Shown here piece after piece: positions 23,142 to 53,793 of a DNA stretch of 64,000 nucleotides. The notes beneath the pieces were generated by a model. It had not been told where the DNA came from, did no database searches, and saw only the letters and a program-made list of their open reading frames with translations. The position numbers were made by a program, and so were the translations under genes. The DNA comes from an uncultured Eubacteriales bacterium (lineage in GTDB: Bacteria > Bacillota > Clostridia > Oscillospirales > Acutalibacteraceae): the NCBI GenBank assembly GCA_934630515.1, contig CAKTVV010000012.1, positions 7,578-71,577 on the forward strand, written 5' to 3'. The stretch's first letter is position 1. Each line of letters starts with the position of its first letter.

Positions 23142-23171
23142 AGCCCCGCCAACCGGTCGGTTGGCGGGGCT
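23142..23171. terminator. bidirectional terminator hairpin between the araC-like gene and the end of the 30-kb block
   Basis: 13-bp stem AGCCCCGCCAACC / GGTTGGCGGGGCT with loop ggtc and T-rich flanks on both strands. Confidence 0.6.
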
Positions 23172-23210: not shown

Positions 23211-26200
23211 TTACTCTACGGTGATCTTCATCACGCCGCCATAATGGGAACCGTACATGGTGTGCTGCGGAATAATCACCGTCTCCCCCGTGGTCGGGTC
23301 CGTTCCGGAAATGTGCGTGTAGAAGTTGGCGTGCCAGTGGCCGTTAAAGACCGCCTTCACCACATCCGCATTGTTCCGGATCAGGTCGCACACCTGATTG
23401 GTGGTCGCATCGCTGATGGAATTGCCCACAAAATCCAGGCTGGTGGTGGTGTTGTATACGCCATTGTTGTTTTCCGCTGTACCGAACTGACCGCCCCGGC
23501 CGTAGCCGCTCATATCGTACACGGTGGTCTCATCCGGTGCGATCGGAATATGCTGGAATACGAGGATCGGGATCTGCTTTTCCCGTGCCGTCTGAATATC
23601 CGCTGTCAGCGGGGCGATCTGGCTCGCCCAATACTTACCCTGCGAGTTATCCAGCACCACCAGCATATAGGCGGGCTTGCCGTCGGCATCGTTTACCGTC
23701 TCGCTGTGATAGTACACATCGTTGGACCAGCCCTCCTGAATCCGGGCAAAGCCCTCCGCCGGGGTGATGTCCGTCAGCGCCTTGTTATCCGGCTGGGACA
23801 GCTCCTTGACCTCGTGGTTGCCCACCGCCATGAGCACGCTGCCGTTCACCGACCGCCGGGTGATAAGATTTCTCGTCACATCCAGCGCTCCATAGGTGAG
23901 ATAGTCCACGGCATCGCCGCCCATAACTGTCTTCTGGAAGGTGGCGGCGTATTTCGCCACCGCCGCCTGCTTGCGGATGGCGTCGCCGGCACGCAGCCAG
24001 CTGCGGCCACGATAGGAGGACAGCGCATTGATGTTCTTGCTCTCAATGTCCCGGCTGTTGATATACGCCATATGGGGGTCGGTGTAGAAGCACAGCTCGC
24101 TCTTCGTGATGTTGAAGCCGCTGTTCACGGTGACGCTGCGCTCATACAGGCCGTTGGACAGCTGCAGGATCTTGTGGTTGGGATCCGTGGGATCCTCATA
24201 GAGGGTCGTTGCCCCCGCATACAGGCTGTTGCGGTAGTTCGGGAACACCGTATCCTCCACATGCCGGACGATCGCCTCGTAGTCGGCATTGGTCTCGCCG
24301 CCAGCAATGGCCTCCGCCGCTACCTTATAGGCGCTGGTGGTGTCATCCTCGGTGTAGAGCACCCGCTCGATGCCGTTGCCGTCCCGATAGCGGATATAGC
24401 CCCGCACCTGATGGAACTCGTCGTAAGAATCAGCCGTGATGCCGGTAATGACGCACCGATAGCTGCGCTCGGTATCCGACTCCAGTATGCCGGTCGGTGC
24501 CAGCGTGATCGGTGTGGCACCCACGGTCTTGGGGGTGAATACATTCACATCCTCCACCGTCGGCTCCCATTCCAGCACCACCGGCGTATCCAGACAGATC
24601 TCCCGTCCGCCCGCCGTATCGGAGGGCAGGGTGATGGCGCCGGATTCCACCACGGTAGGCAGCGCCGCCAAAAATGCCTTGCTCTGCTTAAAGGCAACGC
24701 TCAGCGCCGTTCCGGAGAGGGTATCCACCGCCACGTCTGCGATCCCGAAGTCGTCAGCGGTCAAAGCTACATACTGCGCCGTCAGCACATCCCCGTGCTG
24801 ATAGGTGTCCACCGCCTGCACATACTGTCCGGCGGCGTTTTTCCAGCCCAGGAACGCCTGCCCGGCGACGTACGCCGCCGTTTCCTTGGTCAGATCGACG
24901 GTGACGTTATCGTATACGGTGATAGTCTTGCCGTCGTTGGCGTAGTATTCCACCACCTGCACGGTATAGGAGCCGGCAGCCGGCAGCGTCAGCACGCCGC
25001 CCACCGAAACCGCCTCGTTGCCGTTTGCATCCGTGGCGATAGCGGTGTAGCCCTCCGCCACGGTATAGACACCCACCTTGTCGGTCAGCGTCAAAGCGCC
25101 GGGCATTTTGGTTGTGACCTGCACCATATAGATCCCATCCTGAGCGGTCACGCCGCTGAATTTTGTCACATCGCCCACGCAGGTGGCACCGTTCACCAGC
25201 ACCTGAATGGCGCCGCCCACCGTCAGCGGACCGCTGCCGTCCACCAGTGTGACTGTGGAAGCGTCCTTCACCTCGAGGCTGAGATTGCCGTCGATGGTGG
25301 TGGTACCGGAGCCGTTATTTCCGATATACACCTCGGGAGCCGCCGCCGCATTGTCAAACACCAGCTGCACATTTCCGGCGAACCGGTTGGAATTATTGCT
25401 GTACGCCTCCAGATAGATGGTCTGGTTTTTGCCGTTTGCCTTATAGGCGTTGCGGAACACCACCGTCGTATCTGCCGCCGCCGTGTTGCCGCCCTTGAGA
25501 TAGCCGAGATTCGTTCCCAGCGCACCCCGGGCCTTCACCTGTCCGTTCCAGCGGGTGGGCTGGGTGGCAGAGGCGTTGGTCTCGTAGTCGGCGCCGTAGC
25601 CGTCGGTATAGTCGTTATCGAACATGCCGTACAGCACCGAATCGTCATAGGTGACGCTGTAACCGTTGTGATAGATATACTGATTGACCCGGCGGGTACC
25701 CACCAGCGTCAGATCCTTGAACACCGTAGGACCGCCGATGGTCAGCGGTGCATTGCCGCCCAGCGTGTTGCTGAAGGGCAGATAGGTGGGATCCTCGGCG
25801 GTATTGTACAGTCCCTGCACCACCACCGTCGCCTCATAGGTGGGGGTAGCGGTATACCGGTTGCTGGTCGCCTCCGCATTGGTGAGGTTCACCCAGGAGG
25901 TAAATCCGTGCTGGGGCATCACCTTATTGGTGACGCCGTTCACCTTGTAGTTGCCGACGATCTCATCCACGCCCTTGGTCGCCCGCTCGGCGCCCTTCAG
26001 GATATAGAGATGCGCCGTAGCCCCGGCAGTCAGTCCGTCGGCGTTGATAGTATTCAGCGCATCCACCACGGATGCCGCCGGAGCGGTGGCGGTGCGTCCG
26101 TCGCCGGTGCCGCCCGCCTGCACATAATAGTTTCGGGAGGCCGCCTCGGGATCCTCCCACTCGATGGAAGCCAGCCCCAGCAGGCACCGGCGCAGCAGCG

Positions 26201-28877
26201 CCGCATCTGCCTCGTCCACGGTGCCGTCGGCATTGGCATCGGCGGCGGCGCAATAGACACCGCTCATCTTATCCGCAATGCTCACCAGATCCCGGATATC
26301 CAGCGTGCCGTCCATATTGGCGTCGCCGTACCGCACCACCTGCGCCGTCTGATAGGCTGCATCCCGGGCATACAGCACCGGGATCGCCACCCGCATGGAG
26401 AAGGTGGACATATCCGGCTTGATATACGCCGTATGGGCGCCGGAGTGCAGCCCGGTCGCCAGCACGGTGGGGTTATGGGGATCTAGCTCCACCGTCTGAT
26501 AGTCCCCGTTGTCGATCTTCACCTGCACCTGATTGCCTGCAGCCGCATTGGCGGCGAACAGCGCCAGCTCGGTGCCGGTAAACTCCACCGCCAGCAGCGG
26601 CTCGGTGGTGTAGCTGTCCTTTTTATCCAGCCGGAAATCGCCGGTATAGGTGCCCATGGTCACCGACCCGGAGTTGAAGCGGAACTCACTGCCGCCCAGC
26701 TCCTGACTGCGCTGCATCAGCACCGCCGTGGGCTGGATCACCGTCACGTTGCCGTCCAGCAGGGTCTTGCTCTGCAGCGGCGGCATGGGATGCTTCGTCA
26801 CCGCCGGCTCCGCAAAGAGGGGCGCCACCAGTGAGTTATGCAGATATTCCTTGATCACATCGAAATACAGCGCATAGCCCGCCTCGTTGGGATGGACGGT
26901 ATCGCTCATATAGCTACTCCAGTCGGCATCCGCCACCCGGTTTGCCAGCGCCGAGCCCACATCCACGGTGGGAATGTTGTAGACCGCCGCCATATCCTCG
27001 TGCGCCTGCGCCTGGGCATACAGCGTGCCCTTACGGGCGTTTTCCGCCATCGTGCGCTCGGTGGTCAGCACCGTCACGATGTCGCATTCCGGCAGCGCCG
27101 CCCGCACATTCCGCACGATCGTCTCATACTGCCGGGCGGTGTCATCGTAGCTGCTGCTGCTGTAATAGTCGTTCACCGCATACTCGATGAACAGCAGGTC
27201 GGGCTTAGCGGAGATCACATCCCGCTCCACCCGGTAGGAACCCAACAGAGTGCCGCTCTCGCCGGTGGCCCGGTTGATCTGGGTGATGCTGGCAGTGGGG
27301 AAATTCTCCGCCAGCCAGCTGCCCACCTGCGCCCGCCAGGACAGAGTATCCTGATCGGCGCTGGCCAGTCCGGCGCCTTGGGTCACCGAGCCGCCGAAAT
27401 AGACCACGTTGACCGCCTCGCCGTTTTGCAGCTTGGTATAGGTGTTTTCCAGCGAGCTGCGGTACCGGATATAGTCCTCATATTCCGTCAGCCGCTCCGC
27501 ATTGCCGCCCTCATACTGGGCGGTCATGGTACCGTCGCCGTTATCCTGCCAGCCGATGAACCGAGAATTGGACGGCTTCACCGACACAGTGGACAGATCG
27601 GCGGTTTCATAGACGTTGTACTCGCCGGCACCGCCCACGGTCAGCGTCTCGCTGCCGTAATACAGGGTATCCGGGTGGTTGGCGGCATCGTAGGCATAGG
27701 CGTAGCCTACCGTGCTATGTACCGTATAGGTGCCCGCCGTCTCGGTGAAGGTCAGCAGCTCGCTGTTGCTGCTGTAGTTGGTCAAAATGTAGCTGCCGCC
27801 CTTGACGGTGACGTTCTTGAACTCCTCCACATTGGTGGTGGTGGGAGCGCTGGTATAGCTGCCGTCCTTACGGGCATCCCAGTCGGTGTACAGGGTCTTG
27901 GAATCCTTGATCACCTGATAGGCGCCGTTGATTGTCACGGCGCCGGGACGCTCCGCCAGCACCAGCTCCCGGGCGGACTTGACGTTCAGATTCAGATTCT
28001 TCCGATAGGTGATGGGAAAATACCCGTTGCCGAAATACACCAGCGGCGCACCACCGGAGGAACCGCTGACGATATCAAAGGTCAGGGTCACATCCTCGGC
28101 GTAGCTCTCTGCCGCCTTGTTGCCACCAAGCAAGATAGGAGACAAGGGAGAACCGCCGGTGATGCTGTGGGTACCCAGCAGGAAATTGAACTGAATATCC
28201 ACCGGCTGCTCATACAGGGTGCCGTTGGTGGTGCCGCAATAGATCTCCATGGACTGCCGCAGCATGATCGTGCTGTCCCCGGTCATGGGCCAGTTGTTGA
28301 TATAGCCGAAGTGGGGGCTGGTCTTGTCCGTGTGAGAGAAGGTCACGTTGTTGCCGTTGAGCCGGATGGCTTTCTGGTTCCAGCCGCTGATGATGTTCAG
28401 ATTCTGGAAATGGGTGGGACCGGTCACCACCATTTCGTCACCTTGAACCGCCCGGTTGCCGGTCACCAAATAGGTGCGCCCGGTGTTGTCCGGATGGGGC
28501 TGCACCACCAACTGCGCCGTATATGTCTCCGGCACCGCATTCTCTGCCGTCCATGACGCCAAGCCGTGCTCCGGCTTATCGGCGTATGTCAGGTTGTTAT
28601 TGTAGGTGAACCGATCCGGACGCTGCATGATGTATATGTTGGCCACATCGCCGGCGCCCAGTCCGTCCTCATTGACGGCGTGGATGGCAGCCGCCACCGT
28701 CGCCGCCGGGGTCTCCTCGGTCTTGCCGTCGCCGGTGCCGCCGTTCTGCACATAATAATTGTGCTCGGCAGCAGCGGTGCGCAGGGTGCCGGCGCCGCTG
28801 GCTGCCAGACTGAAGCAGGACAGCAGCATCGCCAGAGACAGCACAAGGCTGCACACCGTGCGTAGCTGTTTTTTCAT
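23211..28877 (-). CDS. 1888-aa secreted multidomain protein: beta-helix-like module, SGNH esterase, dockerin, second beta-helix-like module, metallophosphoesterase
   Basis: AGGAGG RBS precedes ATG 28877. Signal peptide MKKQLRTVCSLVLSLAMLLSCFSLAASGAG. The domain motifs are listed in the sub-features below. Confidence 0.9.
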   Translation of the reverse strand: MKKQLRTVCSLVLSLAMLLSCFSLAASGAGTLRTAAAEHNYYVQNGGTGDGKTEETPAATVAAAIHAVNEDGLGAGDVANIYIMQRPDRFTYNNNLTYADKPEHGLASWTAENAVPETYTAQLVVQPHPDNTGRTYLVTGNRAVQGDEMVVTGPTHFQNLNIISGWNQKAIRLNGNNVTFSHTDKTSPHFGYINNWPMTGDSTIMLRQSMEIYCGTTNGTLYEQPVDIQFNFLLGTHSITGGSPLSPILLGGNKAAESYAEDVTLTFDIVSGSSGGAPLVYFGNGYFPITYRKNLNLNVKSARELVLAERPGAVTINGAYQVIKDSKTLYTDWDARKDGSYTSAPTTTNVEEFKNVTVKGGSYILTNYSSNSELLTFTETAGTYTVHSTVGYAYAYDAANHPDTLYYGSETLTVGGAGEYNVYETADLSTVSVKPSNSRFIGWQDNGDGTMTAQYEGGNAERLTEYEDYIRYRSSLENTYTKLQNGEAVNVVYFGGSVTQGAGLASADQDTLSWRAQVGSWLAENFPTASITQINRATGESGTLLGSYRVERDVISAKPDLLFIEYAVNDYYSSSSYDDTARQYETIVRNVRAALPECDIVTVLTTERTMAENARKGTLYAQAQAHEDMAAVYNIPTVDVGSALANRVADADWSSYMSDTVHPNEAGYALYFDVIKEYLHNSLVAPLFAEPAVTKHPMPPLQSKTLLDGNVTVIQPTAVLMQRSQELGGSEFRFNSGSVTMGTYTGDFRLDKKDSYTTEPLLAVEFTGTELALFAANAAAGNQVQVKIDNGDYQTVELDPHNPTVLATGLHSGAHTAYIKPDMSTFSMRVAIPVLYARDAAYQTAQVVRYGDANMDGTLDIRDLVSIADKMSGVYCAAADANADGTVDEADAALLRRCLLGLASIEWEDPEAASRNYYVQAGGTGDGRTATAPAASVVDALNTINADGLTAGATAHLYILKGAERATKGVDEIVGNYKVNGVTNKVMPQHGFTSWVNLTNAEATSNRYTATPTYEATVVVQGLYNTAEDPTYLPFSNTLGGNAPLTIGGPTVFKDLTLVGTRRVNQYIYHNGYSVTYDDSVLYGMFDNDYTDGYGADYETNASATQPTRWNGQVKARGALGTNLGYLKGGNTAAADTTVVFRNAYKANGKNQTIYLEAYSNNSNRFAGNVQLVFDNAAAAPEVYIGNNGSGTTTIDGNLSLEVKDASTVTLVDGSGPLTVGGAIQVLVNGATCVGDVTKFSGVTAQDGIYMVQVTTKMPGALTLTDKVGVYTVAEGYTAIATDANGNEAVSVGGVLTLPAAGSYTVQVVEYYANDGKTITVYDNVTVDLTKETAAYVAGQAFLGWKNAAGQYVQAVDTYQHGDVLTAQYVALTADDFGIADVAVDTLSGTALSVAFKQSKAFLAALPTVVESGAITLPSDTAGGREICLDTPVVLEWEPTVEDVNVFTPKTVGATPITLAPTGILESDTERSYRCVITGITADSYDEFHQVRGYIRYRDGNGIERVLYTEDDTTSAYKVAAEAIAGGETNADYEAIVRHVEDTVFPNYRNSLYAGATTLYEDPTDPNHKILQLSNGLYERSVTVNSGFNITKSELCFYTDPHMAYINSRDIESKNINALSSYRGRSWLRAGDAIRKQAAVAKYAATFQKTVMGGDAVDYLTYGALDVTRNLITRRSVNGSVLMAVGNHEVKELSQPDNKALTDITPAEGFARIQEGWSNDVYYHSETVNDADGKPAYMLVVLDNSQGKYWASQIAPLTADIQTAREKQIPILVFQHIPIAPDETTVYDMSGYGRGGQFGTAENNNGVYNTTTSLDFVGNSISDATTNQVCDLIRNNADVVKAVFNGHWHANFYTHISGTDPTTGETVIIPQHTMYGSHYGGVMKITVE
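23214..24101 (-). other. calcineurin-like metallophosphoesterase domain (C-terminal 296 aa)
   Basis: All five motifs occur in order: FYTDPHM (DxH), GGDAVDY (GDxxD), VGNHE (GNHE), VFQHIP (H) and NGHWHAN (GHxH). Confidence 0.8.
26169..26336 (-). other. type-I dockerin module (internal)
   Basis: YGDANMDGTLDIRDLVSIADKM...ADANADGTVDEADAALLRRCLLGL forms two EF-hand-like Ca-binding repeats. Confidence 0.8.
26844..27416 (-). other. SGNH/GDSL hydrolase domain
   Basis: VVYFGGSVTQG (block I), GESG (block II), EYAVNDY (block III) and DTVHPNEAGY (block V). Confidence 0.75.
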
Positions 28878-28927
28878 GGGTATTCCTCCTTTTTGATTGT
28901 ATATATTCAAACGGCACAAGGTCCGTC

Positions 28928-31660
28928 TCATGCCTCCAGCCAATCCGCCGTCGCTGCGGCGTCCACCGCCTGCAGCGCCTCCCGGAAGCCGATCCCGTCG
29001 GCGGGATACAGCAGGCTGCCCTTACTCACGCTGTAGCAGCTGTGACGATCCTGATAGTAGGTGTTGCCCTCGATCCCGAACCGATCCGCCGCCCGGGGTG
29101 CATAGAAAAAGTAGCCGTTCGCCACATCAAACACATTGGCGGTGATATGAAAATCTGCGATCGTTCCATTGGTATAGGCGTTGTTCCAAGCCAAGATAAA
29201 CGCCTGATTATCCTTGTTCTGCCGCTGGCTGCACAGCCCGTATCCGGCGAACCGCAGGATATTCTCCGTGAACCGGATGCTCTCCATCGTCACATGGTCG
29301 TTATCCCCGTCCCAGAACTCAAAATTCATTCCGCTGTACTCCACCAGATTATGCGTATAGGTCAGACCCCGGTACACGCCGCCGCTGTAGCCCTGAAAGG
29401 TCATCGCCGCATCGTAGATCTGCCAAAACCGGGTATACTGCACCGTGCAGTCGGCGGCGGCACCCCAAAACTGAATGGCGTTGCCGTAGCGACCGGCCGT
29501 GTACTGCCCGGTGGAGCTGTCCACCGTGTTCTCCCCGCCGATCCAGCGGAATGCGCAGCCGGTCACGGTAATGCCGGAGCAGCTGCCTAGATTGACGGCA
29601 TGCTCGGCAAAATGCTCGATCACCAGATTCTCCAGCGTGATATCGGCGGCATGAAAGCCATTCATAAACCGCCGGGTGGAGGAGATCTGAATGGAGCGGA
29701 ACCGCCATCCGGGATTGATCTGCCGCCAATAGAAATACAGCTTCCCCGTCGTGCGGTCAAAATAATAGTCTCCATCGTCATCCACCTGTGTCCGGTCGGC
29801 ACAGCGCTGCCCGATATAGGCACCGTCGTCCAGCACCACACCGCCCACGCCGCTGCCCTCCACGGCAGCCGTCCACACATACCCGTCCGCCGTATCCCAC
29901 AGCGCCGGGTCCGCATACTCCCGCCGGGAGCCGGTGATGACCGGCTTAGCCCCGCTGCCGTAGGCACCGTACCGGACCCCCGTTTGGGGAACCAGATAGT
30001 CCGTCAGCGGAAATGTATCCCCCCGGCGAAATCGCACGGCATCCCCGGCGGCATAGGTGAGACGGTTTAGCTTGGCTGCCGAAATCGGACGATCGGGGCT
30101 GCAGCCGTCGTTTTGATCGTCACCGTCGGCTGCCACATAATAGGTCGTACCGCCGGCAGCCGCCATCACCGTATCCGGTCGGGCGGCGATCGCCGCCCCC
30201 AGAGCTGCGGCAGCCGCATCGGCACCGCCGGTCAGCGCCGCCGCAGGCTGCAGACGGCTTGCCGCCGTCTCCCATACAAGGGGAGCCAGCCCCAGCAGAT
30301 GCTGCCGCAGACGGATGCTGTCTGCCGGGGTCAGCGCCCCGTCTGCATCGCAGTCGGCAGCGGACAGATACCGTCCCTGCGCCTGCCGCTCCCAGAGAGC
30401 CAGCAGATCCCGCACATCCAGCTCACCATCCAGATTGCCGTCGCCATAATGTACCACATCCCGCTCGGCGGCAAACAGCGTCTCGTCATAGGGCACATAG
30501 CCGGCGGTATAGTCCAGCGCCGCCGCCTGTGCCGTGCCGAAGCTGTCGCTGCCCACGGCAGCGGTACTCCAATTGCTGCGCCAGCCGCCCATATCCCAGA
30601 TGGTGGTCTTTTGCAGCCGGCTGCGGCGGGCGGGATCGTCGGCAGCATACAGGGTGAACTCCGCCACATACAGCTCTGTGATGTACTTGGCCTCCTGCCG
30701 GAAAAAGAACCCGGCATACAGGTGCGTATACGCCGCTGCCTGCGCAGCGGTCAGCGTAAAGGTGTATTCCACCCGCAGCCCATCGTCCTTAACAGCAGCC
30801 GTCACCGGATTGGTCGCCACCGAGGATTGGAACAGGCGTACCCGATCGGTGTTGCTGTCCGGCGTATCCAGAAGCACAAAATCCACCGATCCATTCAGGG
30901 CGCCGCTGACAAAATAGTAGGAGAAGGCGGCGGTGTAGACCCGCCCGCTTTCCAGTGCTCCCACCGGCAGCAGCAGCGACTCTCCCACCATATCCGCATT
31001 TTCATTGCGTATCCTCAGCATGGTGCGCCACCGCTCCGGGCGGTATTCCTCCACCCGCAGGGCAGTAGCGCTGTCGCTGTCCGTCCCCTCGACGGCGCCG
31101 GCGGCGAAGCTCTGATTATTGGCGAGCCAGCCGGTCAGACCCCGGCTGAAATCGCCATTGCGCAGCCGGTTGGTCTTTTCCGCATCCCCGGCATCCCACA
31201 CCCGGGCGTCGAAGAAATAGCCCTCGCCGGTGGCGGCCTTTTTCAGCCGGAGGATAAAATAGACGTCCTTTCCCGCCAGACTGCCGCCGTTGTTATCCGC
31301 CGTCGGCATCGTGACGGTATAGGTATACTCATTGGCTGTCCCCACCGCCGTAACAGCGGTCCGCTCCGCCGTGGCGGGTACGCCGACCCGCTCCCCCCAG
31401 CGCTCCGACACCACCCGGAACACGACCTCAAGCTCCGTCTCCGGAATGGTGTCGGTCAGCGCAAAGGAGAAACCATACTGACCCCCCGGCGTTACCGCCA
31501 CCGGGGTGCGCAGCTCAAAATACTGCGCCGTACCGGTCTTACACAGGTGCAGCACCCGCCGCCCGGCGGTATCCTCCGCCGTCTGCGCCGCAGCGCCGCC
31601 GGGCAGGAGTGCCAGAAGCAGCCATACAGCCAACAGGAGGGAACCGATCCTTTTACCCAT
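28928..31660 (-). CDS. 910-aa secreted protein: two jelly-roll modules, dockerin, right-handed beta-helix
   Basis: AAAGGAG RBS precedes ATG 31660. Signal peptide MGKRIGSLLLAVWLLLALLPGGAAA. The C-terminal half is paralogous to 45808..47163 and 47178..48857 (TYYVAADGDDQNDGCSPDRP, GDAVRFRRGDTF, YGAYGSGAKP). Confidence 0.9.
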   Translation of the reverse strand: MGKRIGSLLLAVWLLLALLPGGAAAQTAEDTAGRRVLHLCKTGTAQYFELRTPVAVTPGGQYGFSFALTDTIPETELEVVFRVVSERWGERVGVPATAERTAVTAVGTANEYTYTVTMPTADNNGGSLAGKDVYFILRLKKAATGEGYFFDARVWDAGDAEKTNRLRNGDFSRGLTGWLANNQSFAAGAVEGTDSDSATALRVEEYRPERWRTMLRIRNENADMVGESLLLPVGALESGRVYTAAFSYYFVSGALNGSVDFVLLDTPDSNTDRVRLFQSSVATNPVTAAVKDDGLRVEYTFTLTAAQAAAYTHLYAGFFFRQEAKYITELYVAEFTLYAADDPARRSRLQKTTIWDMGGWRSNWSTAAVGSDSFGTAQAAALDYTAGYVPYDETLFAAERDVVHYGDGNLDGELDVRDLLALWERQAQGRYLSAADCDADGALTPADSIRLRQHLLGLAPLVWETAASRLQPAAALTGGADAAAAALGAAIAARPDTVMAAAGGTTYYVAADGDDQNDGCSPDRPISAAKLNRLTYAAGDAVRFRRGDTFPLTDYLVPQTGVRYGAYGSGAKPVITGSRREYADPALWDTADGYVWTAAVEGSGVGGVVLDDGAYIGQRCADRTQVDDDGDYYFDRTTGKLYFYWRQINPGWRFRSIQISSTRRFMNGFHAADITLENLVIEHFAEHAVNLGSCSGITVTGCAFRWIGGENTVDSSTGQYTAGRYGNAIQFWGAAADCTVQYTRFWQIYDAAMTFQGYSGGVYRGLTYTHNLVEYSGMNFEFWDGDNDHVTMESIRFTENILRFAGYGLCSQRQNKDNQAFILAWNNAYTNGTIADFHITANVFDVANGYFFYAPRAADRFGIEGNTYYQDRHSCYSVSKGSLLYPADGIGFREALQAVDAAATADWLEA
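30284..30454 (-). other. type-I dockerin module
   Basis: YGDGNLDGELDVRDLLALWE...ADCDADGALTPADSIRLRQHLLGL. Confidence 0.8.
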
Positions 31661-31751
31661 CAGACACCCGCTCCTTTGATGCGCCGAGCAGCTTCCCTGC
31701 ATAAGCACCGCCCGGGTACAGAGAGACCCGGGACAGAGGCGCCCGGCGCTT

Positions 31752-35798: not shown

Positions 35799-35825
35799 AG
35801 CGTTTCCACCTTTCTCATGCAAGTT

Positions 35826-36719: not shown

Positions 36720-36730
36720 TGTTACACCTC

Positions 36731-38932: not shown

Positions 38933-38972
38933 TTGCGTCACCTTTCCTTTTACAAAATCAGTCGATCGGCTC

Positions 38973-41093: not shown

Positions 41094-41115
41094 GGTGATC
41101 CTTCCCTCCCGTTGT

Positions 41116-41979: not shown

Positions 41980-41996
41980 ATCGTACCGCTCCTCAC

Positions 41997-42911: not shown

Positions 42912-42948
42912 ATTCTTCGCCTCATTCTGTCGTTACAAGATAGATCGG

Positions 42949-45774: not shown

Positions 45775-45807
45775 TCCGTCCTCCTGAAACCGTCGAGACC
45801 GGCTCGG

Positions 45808-47163: not shown

Positions 47164-47177
47164 AATTCAAACTCCCA

Positions 47178-48857
47178 TTAGTTTTCGTGCCACTCCAGCG
47201 TCGCCTGTGCATCAAACCGCTGCATCACGGCGACAAAATCCGCCGCCGTCGTCACGGAATATGAGTTGGGATCGCTGTCATTCAGTTTATAGCCCCGGTA
47301 GATCTCGGCATCCTGCCGATACCGGGCGTTCACATAGATCTTGGTGCCGGAAACCGACAGGCGGCTGCCGATGTCGGCGGCGGTGATCTGCCAGTTGATG
47401 ATCATGCGGCCGGGGCAGTCGATGATATTGTTCTGCACCCGCAGCCCATCCACGGTCATCGTCTTGGTGTTGCCCACAAAGCTGCCGTCGATGCCCCGGG
47501 GGCCGCCGTCATTGATGCGGGTGCCCCATCCCAGCGAGGTGAACCGCATAATGTTGTTCGCCATGGTAAAATTCCGCACCGTGGAGCCCTTGTCCCAATA
47601 CTCGAAGTCGGCGTTGTTGTACTCCAGCAGGTTGTCGTTGAAGGTGATATTCTCATAGCTGAAGTCCGCCCCGCCGTAGCCCTGCCACGAGATGGCGGTG
47701 TCAAACACCTGATAGATCCAGTTGTGATTGCAGACGATGTTTTTCGCCCCCGTCCAGAACTGGATGCCGTTGCCGTAGCGGGAATTGCCGTCGGTGGTGG
47801 TGGCGCCGCCGATGTAGCCGATCTCACAATTGGTGATGGATACATTGTAGGCGTTCCAGGTGCAGCTGACCCCCATGATGCCGCCGTATTTCAGGCAGAG
47901 GTTGTCGATCACCACATTGCCCACGCCGCTGGGTACGCCGATGATGCCCATACGCAGGGCGATCTCGATATCCGCATACACCTTGGCGGGGTTGCCCTTA
48001 TCGCAATAGAGATACAGGGTGTTGGTGGATTTATCCTGGAAGAAATCCGTATTCTTTTCCAGACTGCGCAGCCCGGTCTTGCGGTAGCCCACCGCCTGCC
48101 CATGATCGAAGATCATGCTGCCGCAATCGGCGTAGATATAGTCCATCTGCCACACATTTCTCTTGACAGAGGGCGTCCAGACGGCGTTCGCCAGATTCGC
48201 CGGCGAACCATAGAATTTCGGCTTTTCGCCGGTGCCGTAGGAGCCGTAGGTGACCCCCTTCACCGTCAGGAAGGTGGTATACAGCCGGAACACCGAGCCC
48301 CGCTCAAACAGCACGGCGTCTCCCTCGCTCAGGGGCAGACCCCGCACCGCCTCAATGGTCTGGAGGGGAGCCGAGGGCGAGGTGCCGGCGTTGGCGTCGT
48401 CTCCCTTTTCAGAGGAGACGTAGTATTTCTTCCCGGTGATGGTGTAGTAATTCTCCGTGTTGCCGGTGCCCACGATGGCGCTGCGCAGCGCCTCCGCCTG
48501 AGCGTCGGCATAGCCCTTCAGCGGGTTGCTGAGGCTCGCCGTATTCCCGGTGGGAAGCACCTCCTTCACCGTGCCGGAGGTATTGCTCACCGTCTCGTCA
48601 AAGGTGAACTGCCCCGACGCCACCGCATCCACCGACGGGCCGTCGGAGGAGGGATCGGAAGCGTCATCGGGGGTCGGGCTGCTGTTGTCCGACACATTCC
48701 CCGAGGACGGGGTGTCGCTATTCGATGGAGTGACCGAGGGATCCTTCCCGCCGCCGCAGCCGGACAGCAGCACCGCCAGGATCGCCAGCAGAGCGAGGAC
48801 GACCTGTAATCGACCCGCTCCCTTTAAGGAGCGGTTGTTATTTCCAGCTTTCTTCAT
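47178..48857 (-). CDS. right-handed parallel beta-helix lipoprotein
   Basis: Lipobox LLSGC after a hydrophobic signal, then a Ser/Pro/Asp-rich linker. KYYVSSEKGDDANAGTSPSAP, GDAVLFERGSVFR and YGSYGTGEKPKFYGS mark it as a paralog of 45808..47163. Confidence 0.85.
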   Translation of the reverse strand: MKKAGNNNRSLKGAGRLQVVLALLAILAVLLSGCGGGKDPSVTPSNSDTPSSGNVSDNSSPTPDDASDPSSDGPSVDAVASGQFTFDETVSNTSGTVKEVLPTGNTASLSNPLKGYADAQAEALRSAIVGTGNTENYYTITGKKYYVSSEKGDDANAGTSPSAPLQTIEAVRGLPLSEGDAVLFERGSVFRLYTTFLTVKGVTYGSYGTGEKPKFYGSPANLANAVWTPSVKRNVWQMDYIYADCGSMIFDHGQAVGYRKTGLRSLEKNTDFFQDKSTNTLYLYCDKGNPAKVYADIEIALRMGIIGVPSGVGNVVIDNLCLKYGGIMGVSCTWNAYNVSITNCEIGYIGGATTTDGNSRYGNGIQFWTGAKNIVCNHNWIYQVFDTAISWQGYGGADFSYENITFNDNLLEYNNADFEYWDKGSTVRNFTMANNIMRFTSLGWGTRINDGGPRGIDGSFVGNTKTMTVDGLRVQNNIIDCPGRMIINWQITAADIGSRLSVSGTKIYVNARYRQDAEIYRGYKLNDSDPNSYSVTTAADFVAVMQRFDAQATLEWHEN

Positions 48858-48869
48858 CGTACATCTCCC

Positions 48870-50297
48870 TTATTTTTGCAGCTGCTTCACCAGATTGTTG
48901 AAGTTGCGTACACGGGTATCGATCATACCGGCGTTGCTGTCCAGAAAGCTCTTGATCTGGCTGCCCTGCAGGGACAGCAGACCCTGCTTGCCGTCGCCGA
49001 AGGTATCCTCGGCGCTCTCATAGTTGGTGGACCAGATGGTGTTCGTCTGGCTCATGCACCAGTTGTATACCTCCAGATTCTGCTTGTTGCAGAAGAAGGA
49101 ATCCAGATCGTAGTGGCTGCCGTCCAGGAAATACCGCAGGAAATACGGCACCGCCTTGGCGTTCTTGGCGCCCTTTACCAGCGCATACGCCTCATACTCG
49201 TCCCGACCCTGATAATAGGTGCTCTGACCATCCACCGACGGCATGGGAACCGCATAGAGGGTGCCGGCGGACTTCAGATTGCCGAAATAGGAGTTGTTGC
49301 GCCGCAGATACACCGACGCACCGGCGTAGAACAGGCTCTCCGAGGCGTCGAACACCTCCGCACGTCCCCAGCCCAGCAGCTTATCCTTGTTGTACCAGTC
49401 GGCGATCTGCTGGGTCGCCGTGACGAAGGCGCTGTTGGACAGATTGCTGTAATACTGATTGCCGTCATAGCCCACGGGGCCGGCGATGCCGTACAGCTCG
49501 CTCCAGCCCTCCCAATAGGCGCCGGTGCAGCCGAAATTGGCGTTGGAGACCTTTTTATACTCCTTGCACATGCTGATGAACTTGCTCATGGTCCACTTGC
49601 CGTTCTTCCACAGCGTATAGGGATCCTCAAAGTCGTATTTGCTGATGAGGTCCTTGTTGTAGAACATCATATTCACCGAGCCGATGTGGGTGCCCTTGAG
49701 GCTGGTGGCATAGGTGACGCCGTTGACCGTATAATCCTTCATAAGCGTCTGATCCCACGCCGCATCGGTGAAGTCGTAGCCCGCCGCCGAAAGAGGCTGG
49801 AAGGACTGCATCCACGCCGGGTTGGGGGTGCGGGTACGGGCGACATCCGGTGCATTGCCGGAGGCGACCATGGACGCCAGACGGGTGGTGTAGATGCCAT
49901 ACTGGATGGTCTGCCAATCCACCTTGATACCGGTCTGCTTCTGGAATTCCTTGATCGCCGCCGAAGCGCCGGTGTATTCGGACATCGGATTCCAGTTGGC
50001 GATGGTGACGGTGGTGCCCCGCAGCTCCTTGGGCATGGAGGACAGCACCTGACTCCAGCTCTTGCCGTTGACGGTGTTTTCCGCCCGCACCGAGCTGGTG
50101 GGCGCCGCCGAGCCGGAATCGGAGGAGGAGGACGTCGAGTCGGAGTCGGTGCTCTGAGACACCCGGCTCTCCTCATCGGCAAAGAAATCGTCGTTTACCC
50201 CGGACTGGGGGTCCTGCTTGTCGCCGCAGCCGGCCATCGTCGCTGTCATGACGATCACCAGAAGGATCGCTGTCATCGCTCGCAGAAGATTTTTCAT
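48870..50297 (-). CDS. ABC transporter substrate-binding lipoprotein (sugar, family 1)
   Basis: The signal MKNLLRAMTAILLVIVMTATMAGC contains the lipobox. A Ser/Asp-rich linker is followed by an SBP_bac_1-like body (VTIANWNP..., MFYNKDLISKYD). Confidence 0.85.
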   Translation of the reverse strand: MKNLLRAMTAILLVIVMTATMAGCGDKQDPQSGVNDDFFADEESRVSQSTDSDSTSSSSDSGSAAPTSSVRAENTVNGKSWSQVLSSMPKELRGTTVTIANWNPMSEYTGASAAIKEFQKQTGIKVDWQTIQYGIYTTRLASMVASGNAPDVARTRTPNPAWMQSFQPLSAAGYDFTDAAWDQTLMKDYTVNGVTYATSLKGTHIGSVNMMFYNKDLISKYDFEDPYTLWKNGKWTMSKFISMCKEYKKVSNANFGCTGAYWEGWSELYGIAGPVGYDGNQYYSNLSNSAFVTATQQIADWYNKDKLLGWGRAEVFDASESLFYAGASVYLRRNNSYFGNLKSAGTLYAVPMPSVDGQSTYYQGRDEYEAYALVKGAKNAKAVPYFLRYFLDGSHYDLDSFFCNKQNLEVYNWCMSQTNTIWSTNYESAEDTFGDGKQGLLSLQGSQIKSFLDSNAGMIDTRVRNFNNLVKQLQK

Positions 50298-50332
50298 GGT
50301 ACTCATCCTTTCATAAAACATAGATCCAATCG

Positions 50333-51322
50333 TCAACCGACGATACCGCTTGTAGCAATGCTGGCCATAAACTTCCGCTGAATGCAGATATAAAACACGA
50401 TCAGCGGGAGAATGAACAGCAGGCACCCCGACAGCAGGATCGGCACCAGCATGGTGGTGCTGGTCTGCAGATCCGTCTGGAGGGTAGCCGCAATGGTCTG
50501 GGCACCGAAATTGTTGATGGCGGTGGCGAAGGTGTATTTATCCAGATACATCTGCGCCAGATACACGTCGTTCCAGTGCCAGATCACCGAGAACAGCAGC
50601 ACCGTGATGATGGCTGCCCCCGAGGAGGGGATGACGATCCGCAGAAAGGTCTTCCACGCCCCGGCGCCGTCGATGGCTGCCGCCTCCTCCAGCTCCTTGG
50701 GCAAGCCCTTGAAGAACTGGGTGAATATGTAGATGAACAGTGCCCCCTTCAAGCCTACGCCGAACAGCGAGGGCAGATAAAACACCAGCGGCGTGCCGAT
50801 CACATTGGGCCGCAGCTCGTGTCCCACCACCTTGGACAGCAGCCCCAGAATCCCGAAGAAATCCAAACGGCTGAACCCGATATAGCTGGGGATGATCGTC
50901 ATCATGGTGGGCACCAGAATATTCAGCACCATCAGTGCCAGCATGATGCGCTTGCCCTTCAGATTGAACCGTGCCAGCCCGTATGCCGCCACAGCGCAGG
51001 AACAAAACTGAATGAGCGCCGCCACGATCTCGTACACCAGCGTGCGGGGCAGGGTATGCGCCACGTCGAACACCTTGAGCGCATCCACTATGTTGCCGAA
51101 ATAGACGGATTTCGGCACCCAGGTCACCGTCGCATCGTAGGCGTCGGAATAGCTCTTGACCGCATTCACCAAAATATACAAAAACGGGTAGATCAGCACA
51201 TAGCTCAACGAGAGGAAAAACAGATACCGCAGCGCCGACGCCGCCACCCGGGGCAGCGCTTTCTTCCAGCGCTCCTTATCCACGATCACAGGCGCCCGCT
51301 CCTTTCCGATTGATCTTGCCAT
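50333..51322 (-). CDS. carbohydrate ABC transporter permease (MalG-type)
   Basis: TAGGAG RBS. LVNAVKS N-terminal pattern and EAA loop LEEAAAIDGAGAWKTFLRIVIP. Confidence 0.85.
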   Translation of the reverse strand: MARSIGKERAPVIVDKERWKKALPRVAASALRYLFFLSLSYVLIYPFLYILVNAVKSYSDAYDATVTWVPKSVYFGNIVDALKVFDVAHTLPRTLVYEIVAALIQFCSCAVAAYGLARFNLKGKRIMLALMVLNILVPTMMTIIPSYIGFSRLDFFGILGLLSKVVGHELRPNVIGTPLVFYLPSLFGVGLKGALFIYIFTQFFKGLPKELEEAAAIDGAGAWKTFLRIVIPSSGAAIITVLLFSVIWHWNDVYLAQMYLDKYTFATAINNFGAQTIAATLQTDLQTSTTMLVPILLSGCLLFILPLIVFYICIQRKFMASIATSGIVG

Positions 51323-51332
51323 CTCACCGCTC

Positions 51333-52808
51333 CTATCCCATCAGTACAAAGGAAATATACAGCGCCGTATGCCGCCCGGCGGGCAGCACCTCCAGCACCA
51401 CCCGCTCGGTGGCGGCCACCGTCTCCCCGGCGGTCAGCGTACAGTCATAGCCGGTGACCGGATCGGTGTGGATATCCCAGCCGGGCAGGAACACCGTCCG
51501 CTCCCCCTGTGCCGTGAAGCCATCGGGGAGGATCCACCGCAGCGCCAGCGTATAGGGCTGATTTTCAAAATACAGCCGGGAGGAAAACTCGATATGTACA
51601 TCCACACTCCCGCCGGGGGCGATCCGGGGCGCCGACAGCGTCACCGCCGCCCGCAGCAGCGTGTGGGAAAACTCCATGGTATACGGCGCCGCTTTATCCA
51701 GCAGGGGCTGCACCGCCTGCTCCACCGCCCGGGTGAACAGCTGCGCCGCATCCGCCGGGATGTCCTCCTCGCCAAAGGTCACCGTGTAGGGGCGGTGCTT
51801 ATCGTAGCGTCCGCTGTAATACTGCAGCACGGCGGGCGCCACCCGGGCGATCCGGTCGCCCAGCTCGGTGCAGGTGGACGGGAAGCTCTTGCCCACCGTC
51901 CCCCGGGACAGGGAGATGGTGACGATCTTATCCCCGATATAGGCGCTCCAGTCCGCCGGGATCCCGGCGGTGCCATAGAGCAGCCCCATGGTCGCTCCCA
52001 CCGTGGCGGCGGTGCAGTCGGTATCGTCGCCGCAGTTGATGGCGGTAAGCATGGAGCGCTTGAAATCTCCCCCGCCGTAGAGCAGCCCCAGCACCGCATA
52101 CGCCACATTGGAGGGCGCCTCAAACCAGCCGGTGCCGATGTCGGCATTCTGCTCCTGCACGGCGTTGCGTGCCTGCGTCCACTCCTTGCCGCTGCGGTAG
52201 CACTCCTGCACCAGCCGCACGCTCTGCGCCACCCGGGAGCCGGCGGGGATCGCCGCCATTCCCACGGCGATGCACTCCTCCATCCGGCACCCGCCAAAGG
52301 CGGCGGACTGCATCGCTGCCACAAAGGCGGCAGCCACCGTCCCCTCGCCGCAGCCGTGATCCACCCGGGCGTCCTCGATGGCATACCAGGCAGCCAGCGC
52401 CGGCAGCGCCGGAGCGGCACACGCCCAGATCTCCGTGCGGATCCAGGCGCCGTTGGAATGCTTCCAGGTGCTGTGGCAATCCCCCGTCAGACCGGGACGC
52501 AAGCCCTGCATCAGATTGGCCTTGGCGACGCCGTATTCGTTCCAGTGGGGGGTGATAAAGGACAGCCACAGTTCCCCCAGCGTATCGGCGTCGATGTGCT
52601 GGGGTCCTACGTTTTCCAAAGCGTGCAGCCATACCAGCTGCAGGTCCAGATCGTCATTGGGCAGCGGCTCCCCCGGCTCCGTGGCAAAGCCCCGGACATC
52701 CAAGAGCGTGCGGCTATGCTCATAGGGGCCGCCCATGGTGCCGCCGATATTCTTACCGATCCAGCAGGCTGCCACCTTATCCCGGTAGCGGTCAAAATCC
52801 AGTTTCAT
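51333..52808 (-). CDS. ADP-ribosylglycohydrolase family protein with a ~150-aa C-terminal extension
   Basis: CWIGKNIGGTMGGPYE and NCGDDTDCTAATVGATMG metal-site motifs. GGGAGAA RBS precedes ATG 52808. Confidence 0.85.
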   Translation of the reverse strand: MKLDFDRYRDKVAACWIGKNIGGTMGGPYEHSRTLLDVRGFATEPGEPLPNDDLDLQLVWLHALENVGPQHIDADTLGELWLSFITPHWNEYGVAKANLMQGLRPGLTGDCHSTWKHSNGAWIRTEIWACAAPALPALAAWYAIEDARVDHGCGEGTVAAAFVAAMQSAAFGGCRMEECIAVGMAAIPAGSRVAQSVRLVQECYRSGKEWTQARNAVQEQNADIGTGWFEAPSNVAYAVLGLLYGGGDFKRSMLTAINCGDDTDCTAATVGATMGLLYGTAGIPADWSAYIGDKIVTISLSRGTVGKSFPSTCTELGDRIARVAPAVLQYYSGRYDKHRPYTVTFGEEDIPADAAQLFTRAVEQAVQPLLDKAAPYTMEFSHTLLRAAVTLSAPRIAPGGSVDVHIEFSSRLYFENQPYTLALRWILPDGFTAQGERTVFLPGWDIHTDPVTGYDCTLTAGETVAATERVVLEVLPAGRHTALYISFVLMG

Positions 52809-52859
52809 ACAGTTTCTCCCATTCGTCATGCAGGCACACGGTGCTCCGTCCGGTGCGGC

Positions 52860-53675
52860 TCAGTACAGGCTCCGCAGGTATTCCACGCTCTTGCGGGCGC
52901 ATTCCAGCGGCGACAGCCCCATGCTGGGGCGATCCTGCTCCACCACCAGCCACTGGGTGCCGGCATCCTCCGCCGCCGCTAGGATCTCCGGAATATTCTG
53001 CAATCCGCAGCCCACCGGCCGCAGCTCAAACTCCCGTTCCACCTCGTCCCGCCGGTCGGCAGGGGTCGCCCGCAGGGCATACGCCACATCGTTGCGGCGC
53101 CCCACGAAATCCTTCAGGTGCAGCACCGGCACCCGCCCGGCATAACGGCGGATATAGTCCGCCGGATTCTCGCCGCCTACATTCACCCAGCAGACATCCA
53201 GCTGGGCGTCCAGCAGCGCCGCCGGTACCTCCCGGTAGATCCGATCCAGTGCATACTCTCCGTCGATGCGCTCAAATTCGTAGTCGTGGTTATGATACGC
53301 CAGCCGGATACCGCAGGCTTGGGCGCAGGCGCCCAGCTTTTTCAGCCCCTCGATCGCCTCGTCAATCCGCCCGCTTGCCGGACGCAGCTCCGGCGGCAGG
53401 GTGGCGCTGGCAATGTGAGGGCAGCCCAGCAGCCGGTAATCCTGCCACACCGCCGGATCGTCCATCATCTGGGCATAGGTCACATGCGCCGAGATGGGGG
53501 TCAGCCCCAGCCGGTCGCACAGCTGCTTGACCTCGCCGCCGCTGCGCCCGAACAGCCCTGCAAATTCCACGCCGTCGTAGCCCAGCTCCCGCACCTGCCG
53601 CAGAGTGCCTTCAAAATCCGCTTCCATTTCGTCCCGCACCGAAAACAGCTGCAGGGCAATGGGAAATTGCTTCAT
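52860..53675 (-). CDS. sugar phosphate isomerase/epimerase (xylose isomerase-like TIM barrel)
   Basis: IALQLFSVRDE...LGYDGVEFAG...ISAHV pattern. [13 protein letters not shown]. Confidence 0.85.
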   Translation of the reverse strand: MKQFPIALQLFSVRDEMEADFEGTLRQVRELGYDGVEFAGLFGRSGGEVKQLCDRLGLTPISAHVTYAQMMDDPAVWQDYRLLGCPHIASATLPPELRPASGRIDEAIEGLKKLGACAQACGIRLAYHNHDYEFERIDGEYALDRIYREVPAALLDAQLDVCWVNVGGENPADYIRRYAGRVPVLHLKDFVGRRNDVAYALRATPADRRDEVEREFELRPVGCGLQNIPEILAAAEDAGTQWLVVEQDRPSMGLSPLECARKSVEYLRSLY

Positions 53676-53764
53676 AATTTTCTCCCTTCCCGGTCGTCCC
53701 GTAGTGGACGTACCCGTTTCATGCTCTGGCTATATCTGCCAATTTCTTCAATTTTCACAATGTT

Positions 53765-53793
53765 ATTATAATTCTTTTGTACATTTGTATCAA
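53765..53793 (-). promoter_or_regulatory. near-consensus sigma-A promoter heading the 30-kb block
   Basis: The minus strand reads TTGATA (plus 53788-53793), a 17-nt spacer, then TATAAT (plus 53765-53770). It sits in an AT-rich stretch about 90 nt upstream of ATG 53675. Confidence 0.6.

Follow-up and report, generated by a model that had tools for sequence, protein, structure and literature searches.

The window analysed here is a stretch of 64,000 nucleotides (nt) with a G+C content of about 60%, taken from contig CAKTVV010000012.1 of an uncultured Eubacteriales bacterium of the family Acutalibacteraceae. Positions 23211-53675 are occupied by 15 successive open reading frames (ORFs), all on the minus strand and numbered g1 to g15 (Table 1), which form a block with genes for sugar import, surface proteins and putative glycan-degrading enzymes. 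An earlier description made from the DNA letters (here called the sequence-only reading) had proposed a co-directional block of about 30 kb with 15 genes and small gaps, and this was borne out. The starts of g2, g4, g11, g13, g14 and g15 were re-picked on the context of the ribosome-binding site (RBS), and the resulting intergenic gaps from g1 to g15 were 51, 10, 35, 12, 14, 33, 37, 17, 22, 40, 11, 27, 91 and 50 nt. An AGGAGG-like RBS had been proposed for each gene; a core of GGAG, GAGG or AGGA was indeed found ahead of most genes of the block, but the full AGGAGG was present before g7 and g15 only.

Domains were assigned with Pfam and NCBIfam, and the location of each protein was predicted from signal-peptide, lipobox and hydropathy features. 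Three products were predicted to be lipoproteins (g4, g5 and g11), one to be secreted (g7), two to be secreted with a dockerin (g14 and g15), two to be membrane-anchored (g10 and g13) and three to be cytoplasmic (g1, g2 and g6). The contents expected from the sequence-only reading, namely a sugar isomerase-like protein (g1), an ADP-ribosylglycohydrolase (g2), two binding proteins, four permeases and no ATPase, were recovered, and Pfam also confirmed the NHL/TPR-Yip1 protein, the SGNH domain and the 733-amino-acid (aa) lipoprotein. No exact match to the longest-ORF translation of g2 was found in public assemblies.

Judged by sequence, the transport genes make up two sugar importers of the ATP-binding cassette (ABC) type, each with the binding protein, MalF-type permease and MalG-type permease of a CUT1-type set: g7, g8 and g9 in importer 1, and g4, g12 and g3 in importer 2. 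The genes of importer 2 are separated in the window, and the set is contiguous in distant loci. The components of the two importers were only 22-26% identical, so that the pairing is old; a recent duplication of one importer was rejected on the same ground. No Pfam family was found for the N-terminal extension of g7, and a faint match to CBM_35 was observed in one g7 homolog. No ABC ATPase (ABC_tran domain) was detected in the block by Pfam. CUT1 importers of Firmicutes usually share an ATPase encoded elsewhere (MsmK type). The sole ABC ATPase domain of the window was found outside the block, in a 286-aa protein encoded on the minus strand at 62884-63744 (Pfam ABC_tran, E 2.3e-33).

The hydropathy profile of g10 indicated an extracellular ectodomain of about 450 aa, followed by one transmembrane segment and then the multi-pass Yip1 domain. 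A search for literature linking Yip1 with binding proteins and glycoside hydrolases (GH) gave nothing relevant. A precedent for a Yip1 accessory subunit is YknWXYZ of Bacillus subtilis, where a Yip1-family protein works with an ABC transporter; this system is a toxin-resistance exporter that lacks an NHL/TPR ectodomain and is not linked to glycans.

Table 1. Genes and signals of the block and of its immediate surroundings (positions in the window)
Feature	Position	Strand	Description and support
Sigma-70-type promoter-like site	53765..53793	-	TTGATA-17-TATAAT; 11/12 consensus match only; ~90 nt upstream of g1
g1, xylose-isomerase-like TIM barrel (sugar isomerase/epimerase/dehydratase type)	52860..53675	-	271 aa; Pfam AP_endonuc_2 E 4e-19; weak IolE match; no signal peptide
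g2, ADP-ribosylglycohydrolase fold	51333..52808	-	491 aa; Pfam ADP_ribosyl_GH E 3.5e-38; further C-terminal domain of ~190 aa; cytoplasmic
g3, MalG/UgpE-type permease, importer 2	50333..51322	-	Pfam BPD_transp_1; NCBIfam UgpE/MalG-like
g4, small lipoprotein solute-binding protein, importer 2	48870..50297	-	475 aa; Pfam SBP_bac_8 and SBP_bac_1; N-terminus ...TMAGC
g5, lipoprotein beta-helix enzyme candidate	47178..48857	-	559 aa; GH136-like N-terminal cap; lipobox LSGC; paralog of g6 and g14
g6, cytoplasmic beta-helix enzyme candidate	45808..47163	-	451 aa; AlphaFold model, pLDDT 95.7; no signal peptide
g7, large secreted solute-binding protein, importer 1	42949..45774	-	941 aa; binding-protein domain at residues 577-848; N-terminal extension of ~520 aa
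g8, MalF/UgpA-type permease, importer 1	41997..42911	-	Pfam and NCBIfam
g9, MalG/UgpE-type permease, importer 1	41116..41979	-	Pfam and NCBIfam
g10, NHL-TPR-Yip1 protein	38973..41093	-	706 aa; signal peptide, NHL and TPR ectodomain, multi-pass Yip1 membrane domain; Pfam Yip1 E 1.1e-11, NHL, TPR; hydropathy
g11, DUF5696 lipoprotein	36731..38932	-	733 aa; Pfam DUF5696 E 1.7e-113; GH129/GH101-like glycosidase candidate
g12, MalF/UgpA-type permease, importer 2	35826..36719	-	Pfam BPD_transp_1 E 1.6e-4 (below curated cut-off); NCBIfam UgpA-like E 7e-17
g13, surface protein	31752..35798	-	1348 aa; signal peptide, six CBM4/9-like modules (~177 aa), two CarboxypepD_reg, C-terminal membrane anchor
g14, secreted protein	28928..31660	-	910 aa; g13-type module, further N-terminal region, dockerin, beta-helix enzyme candidate
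g15, secreted protein	23211..28877	-	1888 aa; module A, SGNH esterase, dockerin, module B, C-terminal metallophosphoesterase-motif domain
Terminator hairpin between convergent g15 and araC	23142..23171	-	13-pair stem; z -4.3; 0/200 shuffles fold as well; poor in T-tract
AraC-family regulator, convergent with g15	22184..23137	+	Pfam HTH_18, HTH_AraC, AraC_binding
Cytoplasmic GH106-like protein (1020 aa) and metallophosphoesterase (436 aa)	17663..22032	-	Pfam Glyco_hydro_106 E 6.2e-8; Metallophos E 3.5e-11
Membrane-anchored SGNH esterase, upstream	54031..55500	-	Pfam Lipase_GDSL_2 E 8.9e-22; signal peptide and C-terminal transmembrane segment

The cassette in related genomes

A genome scan with an alignment of DUF5696, the family of g11, gave 76 loci, and the proteins of the window were mapped onto 79 fetched loci after removal of duplicates. 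The loci of the scan were all from genome bins of uncultured Acutalibacteraceae, Oscillospiraceae, Ruminococcaceae or 'Clostridia', and their hosts were human, ruminant, rabbit and chicken guts. A homolog of g10 adjoined DUF5696 in 78 of the 79 loci, a g12 homolog followed it in 73 and a g7 homolog was present in 66, with g8 and g9 invariant in position. The complete order g7-g8-g9-g10-g11-g12 was intact in 64/79 loci, and most of the loci without it were truncated by contig ends. The origin in Oscillospiraceae/Ruminococcaceae guessed by the sequence-only reading was right; its description of the block as built from unusual parts was not supported, as the central genes are a cassette that is repeated in the 79 loci of related genomes.

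The second importer was less regular in its placement. A g3 homolog came directly after g12 in 38 loci and a g4 homolog lay within 10 kb in 36, and in the distant loci the g4 homolog was placed after the homologs of g12 and g3. In the clade of the window, g3 and g4 are upstream with the beta-helix genes, and the second importer is thus split. From the core order and the placement of g3 and g4 across the 79 loci, the ancestral unit was likely one of eight genes with two complete importers. A beta-helix gene was found within 10 kb in 29/79 loci, and homologs of g11 and g6 repeatedly had contigs in common. A g2 homolog lay near the core (within 10 kb) in a single locus. In five loci (L073, L074, L076, L078 and L081) the g10 homolog was split into two neighbouring ORFs of about 520 and 260 aa; these are the most distant loci, with about 26% DUF5696 identity, and the split g10 lay upstream of the match to DUF5696, at a distance of about 10 kb.

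Several of the bins carried two to four cassette loci per genome, with four in UBA1734. A bin with DNA 94% identical to the window had two, L007 and L019. The second of these (contig CALAFJ010000053.1) is a 41%-identical copy of the cassette with a GH29 fucosidase, a GH2 and an alpha/beta-hydrolase esterase downstream. The accessory genes varied by locus: AraC regulators were the commonest (17), GH130 (11), GH16 (5) and GH36 (3) genes were counted as well, and GH2, GH20, GH29, GH123, AXE1 and other esterases, UxuA, fucose isomerase and dockerin proteins were also encoded near related loci. The surface protein g13 of L007 had one extra module of about 177 aa (window 34644-35159).

Enzyme candidates and surface proteins

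The DUF5696 lipoprotein g11 was modelled with AlphaFold from 45 homologs (predicted local distance difference test, pLDDT, 89.8; predicted template modelling score, pTM, 0.88). The model has an N-terminal beta-sandwich, a (beta/alpha)8-like barrel and a C-terminal beta-sandwich, which is the three-part layout of GH129 and GH101. In a Foldseek comparison with the PDB the best match was the GH129 enzyme ZgGH129 (5opq; E 2.8e-32, target-normalised template modelling (TM) score about 0.7), followed by 8rzk, 5wzn and then GH101 structures. The GH129 enzyme NagBb matched at about 1e-24 and GH101 endo-alpha-N-acetylgalactosaminidases at about 1e-16, with GH36, GH31 and GH97 weaker. By sequence, Pfam gave DUF5696 alone (E up to 0.01) and no GH129/GH101 model, phmmer of g11 against the PDB gave no match, and the profile of the DUF5696 family matched ZgGH129 weakly (E 0.004, in three weak collinear pieces).

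Residues D453 and D537 of g11 were invariant in a 45-sequence alignment with identities to g11 down to 34%, and the invariant D453, D537, N570 and N616 directly follow predicted barrel strands. Active sites of triosephosphate isomerase (TIM) barrels sit just after the barrel strands. The position of D453 and D537 in the model fits such an active site, which makes them candidates for catalytic residues only. The SpGH101 entries of the PDB among the matches carry mutations at D764 and E796. Taken together, g11 looks like a glycosidase, although it is not assignable to GH129 or GH101, and its catalysis is predicted from a model. Clustered at 50% identity, DUF5696 forms 5,055 clusters with an E-value limit of 1e-3 and 3,270 with a limit of 1e-30; no papers mentioning DUF5696 or PF18952 were found in the literature searched.

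The second group of enzyme candidates consists of g5, g6 and the C-terminal portion of g14, which matched each other with E from 1e-45 to 1e-80 (g14-g6, E 1e-79). Residues 122-240 of g5, the first 120 or so of its beta-helix module, matched the NCBIfam model LnbX with E 4.5e-11, at 41 bits against a cut-off of 2500. Against the PDB, g5 matched 7v6m, 6kqs and 5gqc with E-values between 1.8e-11 and 1.3e-8, and the profile of the beta-helix family matched the GH136 structures 7v6m, 6kqs, 5gqc and 7v6i at E 2.5e-17 to 1.4e-9, over profile residues ~31-155 only. The segment shared with GH136 is a cap with the motif YYVS..GDD.NDG....P...L......L..GD.VL.ERG. The model of g6 is a right-handed parallel beta-helix with beta-strand rungs throughout, for which the best Foldseek matches were GH141 BT1002, GH120 XylC and GH136, all matches being beta-helix enzymes. 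The Pfam model Beta_helix was passed by a 58%-identity homolog of g6.

Invariant residues in an alignment of 36 sequences, the most distant of them 32% identical to g6, included D281 and E307-x6-E314 (g6 numbering), and this Glu pair was found in all three paralogs of the window. The catalytic acid/base and nucleophile of GH136 are two Asp residues seven positions apart, D568/D575 in ErLnb136 (PMC7335108). On spacing in the sequence, E307/E314 might be the counterpart of this pair in the g6 family, a hypothesis that we put forward here. A search with an 86-aa fragment of ErLnb136 from a printed alignment gave six short fragments and no full-length GH136. The three proteins thus look like GH136-like glycosidase candidates that are not assignable to GH136, with catalysis predicted from sequence and model. 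The sequence-only reading had recognised no classical GH in the block; this claim has to be revised in the light of the match of the g11 model to GH129/GH101 and of the GH136-type cap and GH141/GH120/GH136-like fold of g5, g6 and g14.

The DUF5696 and beta-helix proteins might instead be non-catalytic and serve as surface glycan-binding or scaffold proteins, like those of the SusE/F type of Bacteroides, with the cutting enzymes encoded elsewhere. In favour of this, no alignment of their catalytic residues with a characterised family could be made, and DUF5696 is constant where the accessory enzymes differ, as would be expected for generic machinery. However, D453/D537 in g11 and D281 and E307/E314 in the g6 family are invariant in their alignments, and g6 is cytoplasmic, so that a surface-binding role would make no sense for it. 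We regard a purely binding role as very improbable.

Among the surface proteins, g13 had been described as carrying a 6-7x tandem array; this was corrected to six clear modules like carbohydrate-binding modules (CBM). The first module of g14 aligned with the modules of g13, and g14 resembles a mosaic in which a g13-type module is joined to a g6-type beta-helix. The presence of two dockerins was confirmed: by eye, each has two calcium-binding repeats of the DxNxDGxxDxxD type, and the Pfam match to Dockerin_1 was firm for g15 (E 2.4e-5) and weak for g14 (E 0.056).

The SGNH domain of g15 matched Pfam Lipase_GDSL_2 with E 1.2e-22. The calcineurin-type domain proposed for the C-terminus of g15 was sustained in part. 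The ordered motifs DxH (1600), GDxxD (1654), GNHE (1686) and GHxH (1846) were found as one regular-expression match over residues 1600-1849, but no match was obtained for this domain with hidden Markov models (HMMs) of Pfam or with PDB sequences at E up to 10. The claim of five paralogous beta-helix modules was replaced by a division into three and two, with g5, g6 and g14 on one side and the two separate modules of g15 on the other. Modules A and B of g15 matched each other only (E 1e-25), and no significant similarity to g5, g6 or g14 was found by phmmer or hhalign; the g15 modules were therefore rejected as paralogs of these proteins. Module A gave no match by phmmer against the PDB and in Pfam (E up to 10), and its hhalign alignment to the beta-helix family was a non-significant one of 51 columns at the N-terminal cap (probability 1.9%). 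Module B gave no match in Pfam (E up to 10) and none by hhalign.

The block as a probable glycan utilization locus

Gram-positive polysaccharide utilization loci (PULs) are recognised by enzyme genes, transport and a regulator in one locus (PMC5320581). All three components were found here, with the activity of the enzymes being a prediction. We hold with moderate confidence that the block is a Gram-positive PUL-like operon around a conserved, previously undescribed cassette. The observed gene order, domains and predicted locations, the relatedness in fold of g11 and g6 to glycosidases, the conservation and multiplicity of the cassette and the variation of its accessory genes directly support this reading; from there we infer what the enzymes catalyse, the part played by g10, a single transcript and the substrate. 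A surface glycan capture, processing and import locus of Gram-positive type with dockerin enzymes had already been proposed by the sequence-only reading, and this proposal was strengthened by the adjacent AraC regulator, which probably controls the locus.

A number of observations weigh against the reading as a PUL-like operon. The sequence similarity to GH136 is limited to the N-terminal 80-120 residues, with later segments not significant in the profile comparison with the PDB, and the Foldseek TM-scores of the g6 beta-helix were low (0.2-0.47). GH136 requires a helical partner subunit or domain, LnbY / GH136-I (PMC7335108), and this partner was not recognised, no extra helical domain of about 220 aa being found beside the beta-helix in the block products. 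The catalytic residues of GH129 and GH136 could not be placed on g11 or g6. No cohesin was seen among the scanned products of the window, although no search aimed at dockerin partners was made. In the locus of a 59%-identity relative, g1 and g2 are absent and a giant SGNH protein is encoded upstream. In L007 and L001, both 94% identical to the window in DNA, a single gene, g14 (28915-31751), is cleanly absent. The lack of conservation of g1, g2 and g14 in close relatives indicates that the block is no fixed set of 15 genes, and in gene content the block is a conserved core with a fast-changing periphery. Lastly, the promoter and terminator scans gave consensus matches at chance-level density, and internal promoters are possible in a unit of 30 kb.

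The transcription signals were as the sequence-only reading had reported them. The near-consensus promoter-like site upstream of g1, with an 11/12 match, was the only sense-strand site with at least 9/12 between 23211 and 53800, and the only strong terminator was the hairpin after the last gene. No significant terminator was found in the 91-nt g13-g14 gap or in the g14-g15 gap when folding was compared with shuffled sequence; a terminator in the former was rejected, as it folded no better than shuffles (z -1.3). Since total counts of promoter-like sites were not above those of shuffled sequence, the promoter match is weak supporting evidence and not proof. No riboswitch or leader RNA was found in the block by a scan with Rfam. 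The leader of about 90 nt between the promoter-like site and g1 (53676-53764) folded somewhat better than shuffles (z -2.55, 1/200) and matched no Rfam family. The promoter-like sites within 23211-53675 were strongly asymmetric, with none in sense and nine in antisense, when about six per strand were expected from shuffles; a bias in composition could account for this, as could selection against sense promoters inside the block.

Judging from these signals, a single transcript may cross the block. Alternatively, internal promoters might split the core cassette from the accessory modules g1-g2, g3-g6 and g13-g15. The length of the unit, the absence of g1-g2 in the 59%-identity relative, the presence or absence of g14 between strains 94% identical in DNA and the clade-dependent position of g3-g4 would all fit such a division, and non-canonical promoters would be invisible to consensus scans. 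Against it stand the lack of any sense promoter-like site with at least 9/12 in 30.5 kb, gaps of at most 91 nt and the absence of a significant internal terminator in the gaps examined. A block made of several transcription units is, on balance, rather unlikely.

In the PUL-like reading, the six-module CBM-like array of g13, anchored in the membrane, would hold a complex, probably acylated heteroglycan at the surface, with the dockerin-tethered g14 and g15 alongside. Substituents would be removed by the SGNH domain of g15, and perhaps also by its phosphoesterase-motif domain, and the glycan would be cut into oligosaccharides by the lipoprotein g5, the dockerin-borne g14 and g11. The products would enter through the two very divergent sugar ABC importers, powered by an ATPase encoded elsewhere, with g10 as a probable accessory subunit linking capture at the surface to the permeases. 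The cytoplasmic g6, g2 and g1 would complete the breakdown.

Among the closest known systems, the Gram-positive PULs described from Roseburia and Eubacterium, some of which are GH136 loci that serve milk oligosaccharides and mucin, resemble the block in that enzymes, a regulator and a sugar ABC importer whose binding protein is a lipoprotein are clustered (PMC5320581; PMC7335108). They also share with it a GH136-related beta-helix enzyme, surface and intracellular copies of enzymes and the lack of an ATPase gene in the locus. The block differs from them in having two importers instead of one, an invariant NHL-TPR-Yip1 protein, a DUF5696 lipoprotein and a 941-aa binding protein with a 520-aa extension. 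It has no GH112 phosphorylase and no recognisable GH136-I/LnbY, and its GH136 match is confined to the N-terminal cap. The 'mucinolysome' of Limousia (PMC12997984) is likewise from a gut member of the Acutalibacteraceae and comprises dockerin-tethered glycan-degrading enzymes, those of Limousia including GH136 and GH101 types. However, its defining parts are scaffoldins and dockerin-bearing enzymes from recognised CAZy families, whereas dockerins occur in 2 of the 15 proteins of the block. GH129 is not mentioned in the main text of that paper, and neither DUF5696 nor Yip1 appears in its supplements, as far as these parts of the source were covered. Finally, the Sus-like PULs of Bacteroidota resemble the cassette in having an invariant capture and import core in several copies per genome, each with different enzymes and a dedicated regulator; the parts differ entirely, the cassette combining ABC importers with lipoproteins and a Yip1 protein in a single-membrane cell, and the two cores are not homologous.

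At the level of single proteins, the three-part architecture of g11 is shared with GH129 (NagBb, ZgGH129) and GH101 (EngBF, SpGH101), but identity is about 13-15%, Pfam gives DUF5696 only, and g11 is a lipoprotein within a transporter cassette. The right-handed beta-helix and N-terminal cap motif of g5, g6 and g14 are shared with GH136 (LnbX/LnbY, ErLnb136, TnX). The conserved acid pair of the g6 family is Glu-x6-Glu and that of GH136 is Asp-x6-Asp (PMC7335108), there is no significant alignment past about residue 120, and GH141 and GH120 score as well as GH136 against the structure of g6. In kind, the block is a Gram-positive PUL; it is new in architecture, with a core of double importer, Yip1 protein and DUF5696 and with two enzyme candidates outside recognised families.

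The guts of humans and animals are rich in Acutalibacteraceae and related Oscillospirales, most of which are uncultured and whose use of glycans is poorly understood. The cassette probably serves many different glycans. A wider proposal, for which our confidence falls somewhat short of even, is that uncultured gut Acutalibacteraceae and other Oscillospirales use the cassette as general machinery for acquiring glycans, of a kind not described before, and that it is a functional counterpart of the SusC/SusD core of Bacteroidota PULs. In this proposal DUF5696 and the GH136-capped beta-helix would be two new GH families and the Yip1 protein a new type of ABC-importer accessory. If the cassette is general uptake machinery, it could be used as a marker to find and count glycan loci, as SusC/SusD is for Bacteroidota. 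The biochemistry of DUF5696 and of the beta-helix family could found new CAZy families, and the constant pairing of two importers with Yip1 raises the testable question of how ABC importers are coupled to surface capture.

Neighbouring genes and possible substrates

On both sides of the block there are genes that may bear on its substrate. The upstream membrane-anchored SGNH esterase is possibly linked to the block in function; it has its own promoter-like site (55562..55535) and terminator-like site (54005..53992). The genes for the GH106-like protein and the cytoplasmic metallophosphoesterase, just past araC, overlap by 4 nt, and this pair is also possibly linked to the block; the GH106-like protein matched PDB 6q2f with E 2.3e-7. 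Further away, a NAGPA phosphodiester-glycosidase domain (Pfam E 5.1e-40) was found in a 426-aa protein whose gene, on the plus strand at 13289-14569, lies at 9 kb from the block. Two MgtC genes, a Na/H exchanger and a LysR regulator lie between the NAGPA gene and the block. Two MgtC-family genes were observed less than 5 kb apart, at 12455-13195 (plus strand) and 17022-17918 (minus strand).

The sequence-only reading had proposed a teichoic-acid-, capsule- or phosphomannan-like substrate, on the strength of the phosphoesterase motifs and SGNH domains. In its fuller form, this proposal is that an esterified, phosphodiester-bridged polymer (teichoic-acid-like, a rhamnose-rich wall polysaccharide, a capsule or phosphomannan) is opened by the SGNH and metallophosphoesterase domains. 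The ordered metallophosphoesterase motifs in g15, the second, cytoplasmic metallophosphoesterase with the GH106-like (rhamnosidase-family) protein just downstream, the two SGNH esterases (the g15 domain and the upstream gene) and the NAGPA gene are consistent with it, as is a rhamnose mutarotase gene, rhaM, in the 59%-identity sister locus. On the other side, the phosphoesterase domain of g15 was without HMM or PDB sequence support. The queries with the g15 C-terminus and with the 436-aa protein were matched within 10 kb of none of the 79 loci, and that with g2 in one; the proposal rests on motifs that were not recovered in related loci. Between the NAGPA gene and the block there are genes unrelated to it. 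The conserved enzyme candidates are glycosidase-like and not phosphodiesterase-like, and related loci carry GH36, GH20, GH29, GH2, GH123, GH130 or GH16 instead. We consider a phosphodiester-bridged substrate distinctly unlikely.

A second possibility is the foraging of host glycans (mucin O-glycans, N-glycans or glycolipids), in which g11 would cut an alpha-linked core, the GH136-like enzymes would free disaccharides and SGNH would remove O-acetyl groups. The nearest structural relatives of the candidates are enzymes of mucin and milk glycans (NagBb, EngBF, SpGH101 and the GH136 lacto-N-biosidases), and dockerin-borne GH136 and GH101 are applied to mucin by Limousia, a member of the same family (PMC12997984). 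Sister loci with GH20, with GH29, GH2 and an esterase (L019), with GH123 and with GH36 would also fit, as would genes for BNR-repeat proteins (a sialidase-type fold) and fucose isomerase near related loci. However, specificity is not fixed by remote fold similarity, as ZgGH129 acts on carrageenan oligosaccharides. The accessories of the window itself are the GH106-like rhamnosidase-family protein and the phosphoesterases, and rhamnose is not an animal sugar. GH130 and GH16 occur in other loci, and many of the genomes are from the rumen or the hindgut of herbivores, where plant glycans dominate. Host-glycan foraging, too, is unlikely as the function of the cassette. Neither of the two substrate models is fixed, given that a remote likeness in fold does not determine specificity and that GH130 or GH16 is encoded at other loci.

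On the far side of the upstream SGNH gene, a tRNA-Pro gene (CGG) was found on the minus strand at 57758-57834 and was the sole match of the Rfam scan. Beside it, up to 62500, there is a stretch of lower G+C content (0.52-0.54) with two XRE-type helix-turn-helix proteins, and the region 57758-62500 may be an integrated element.

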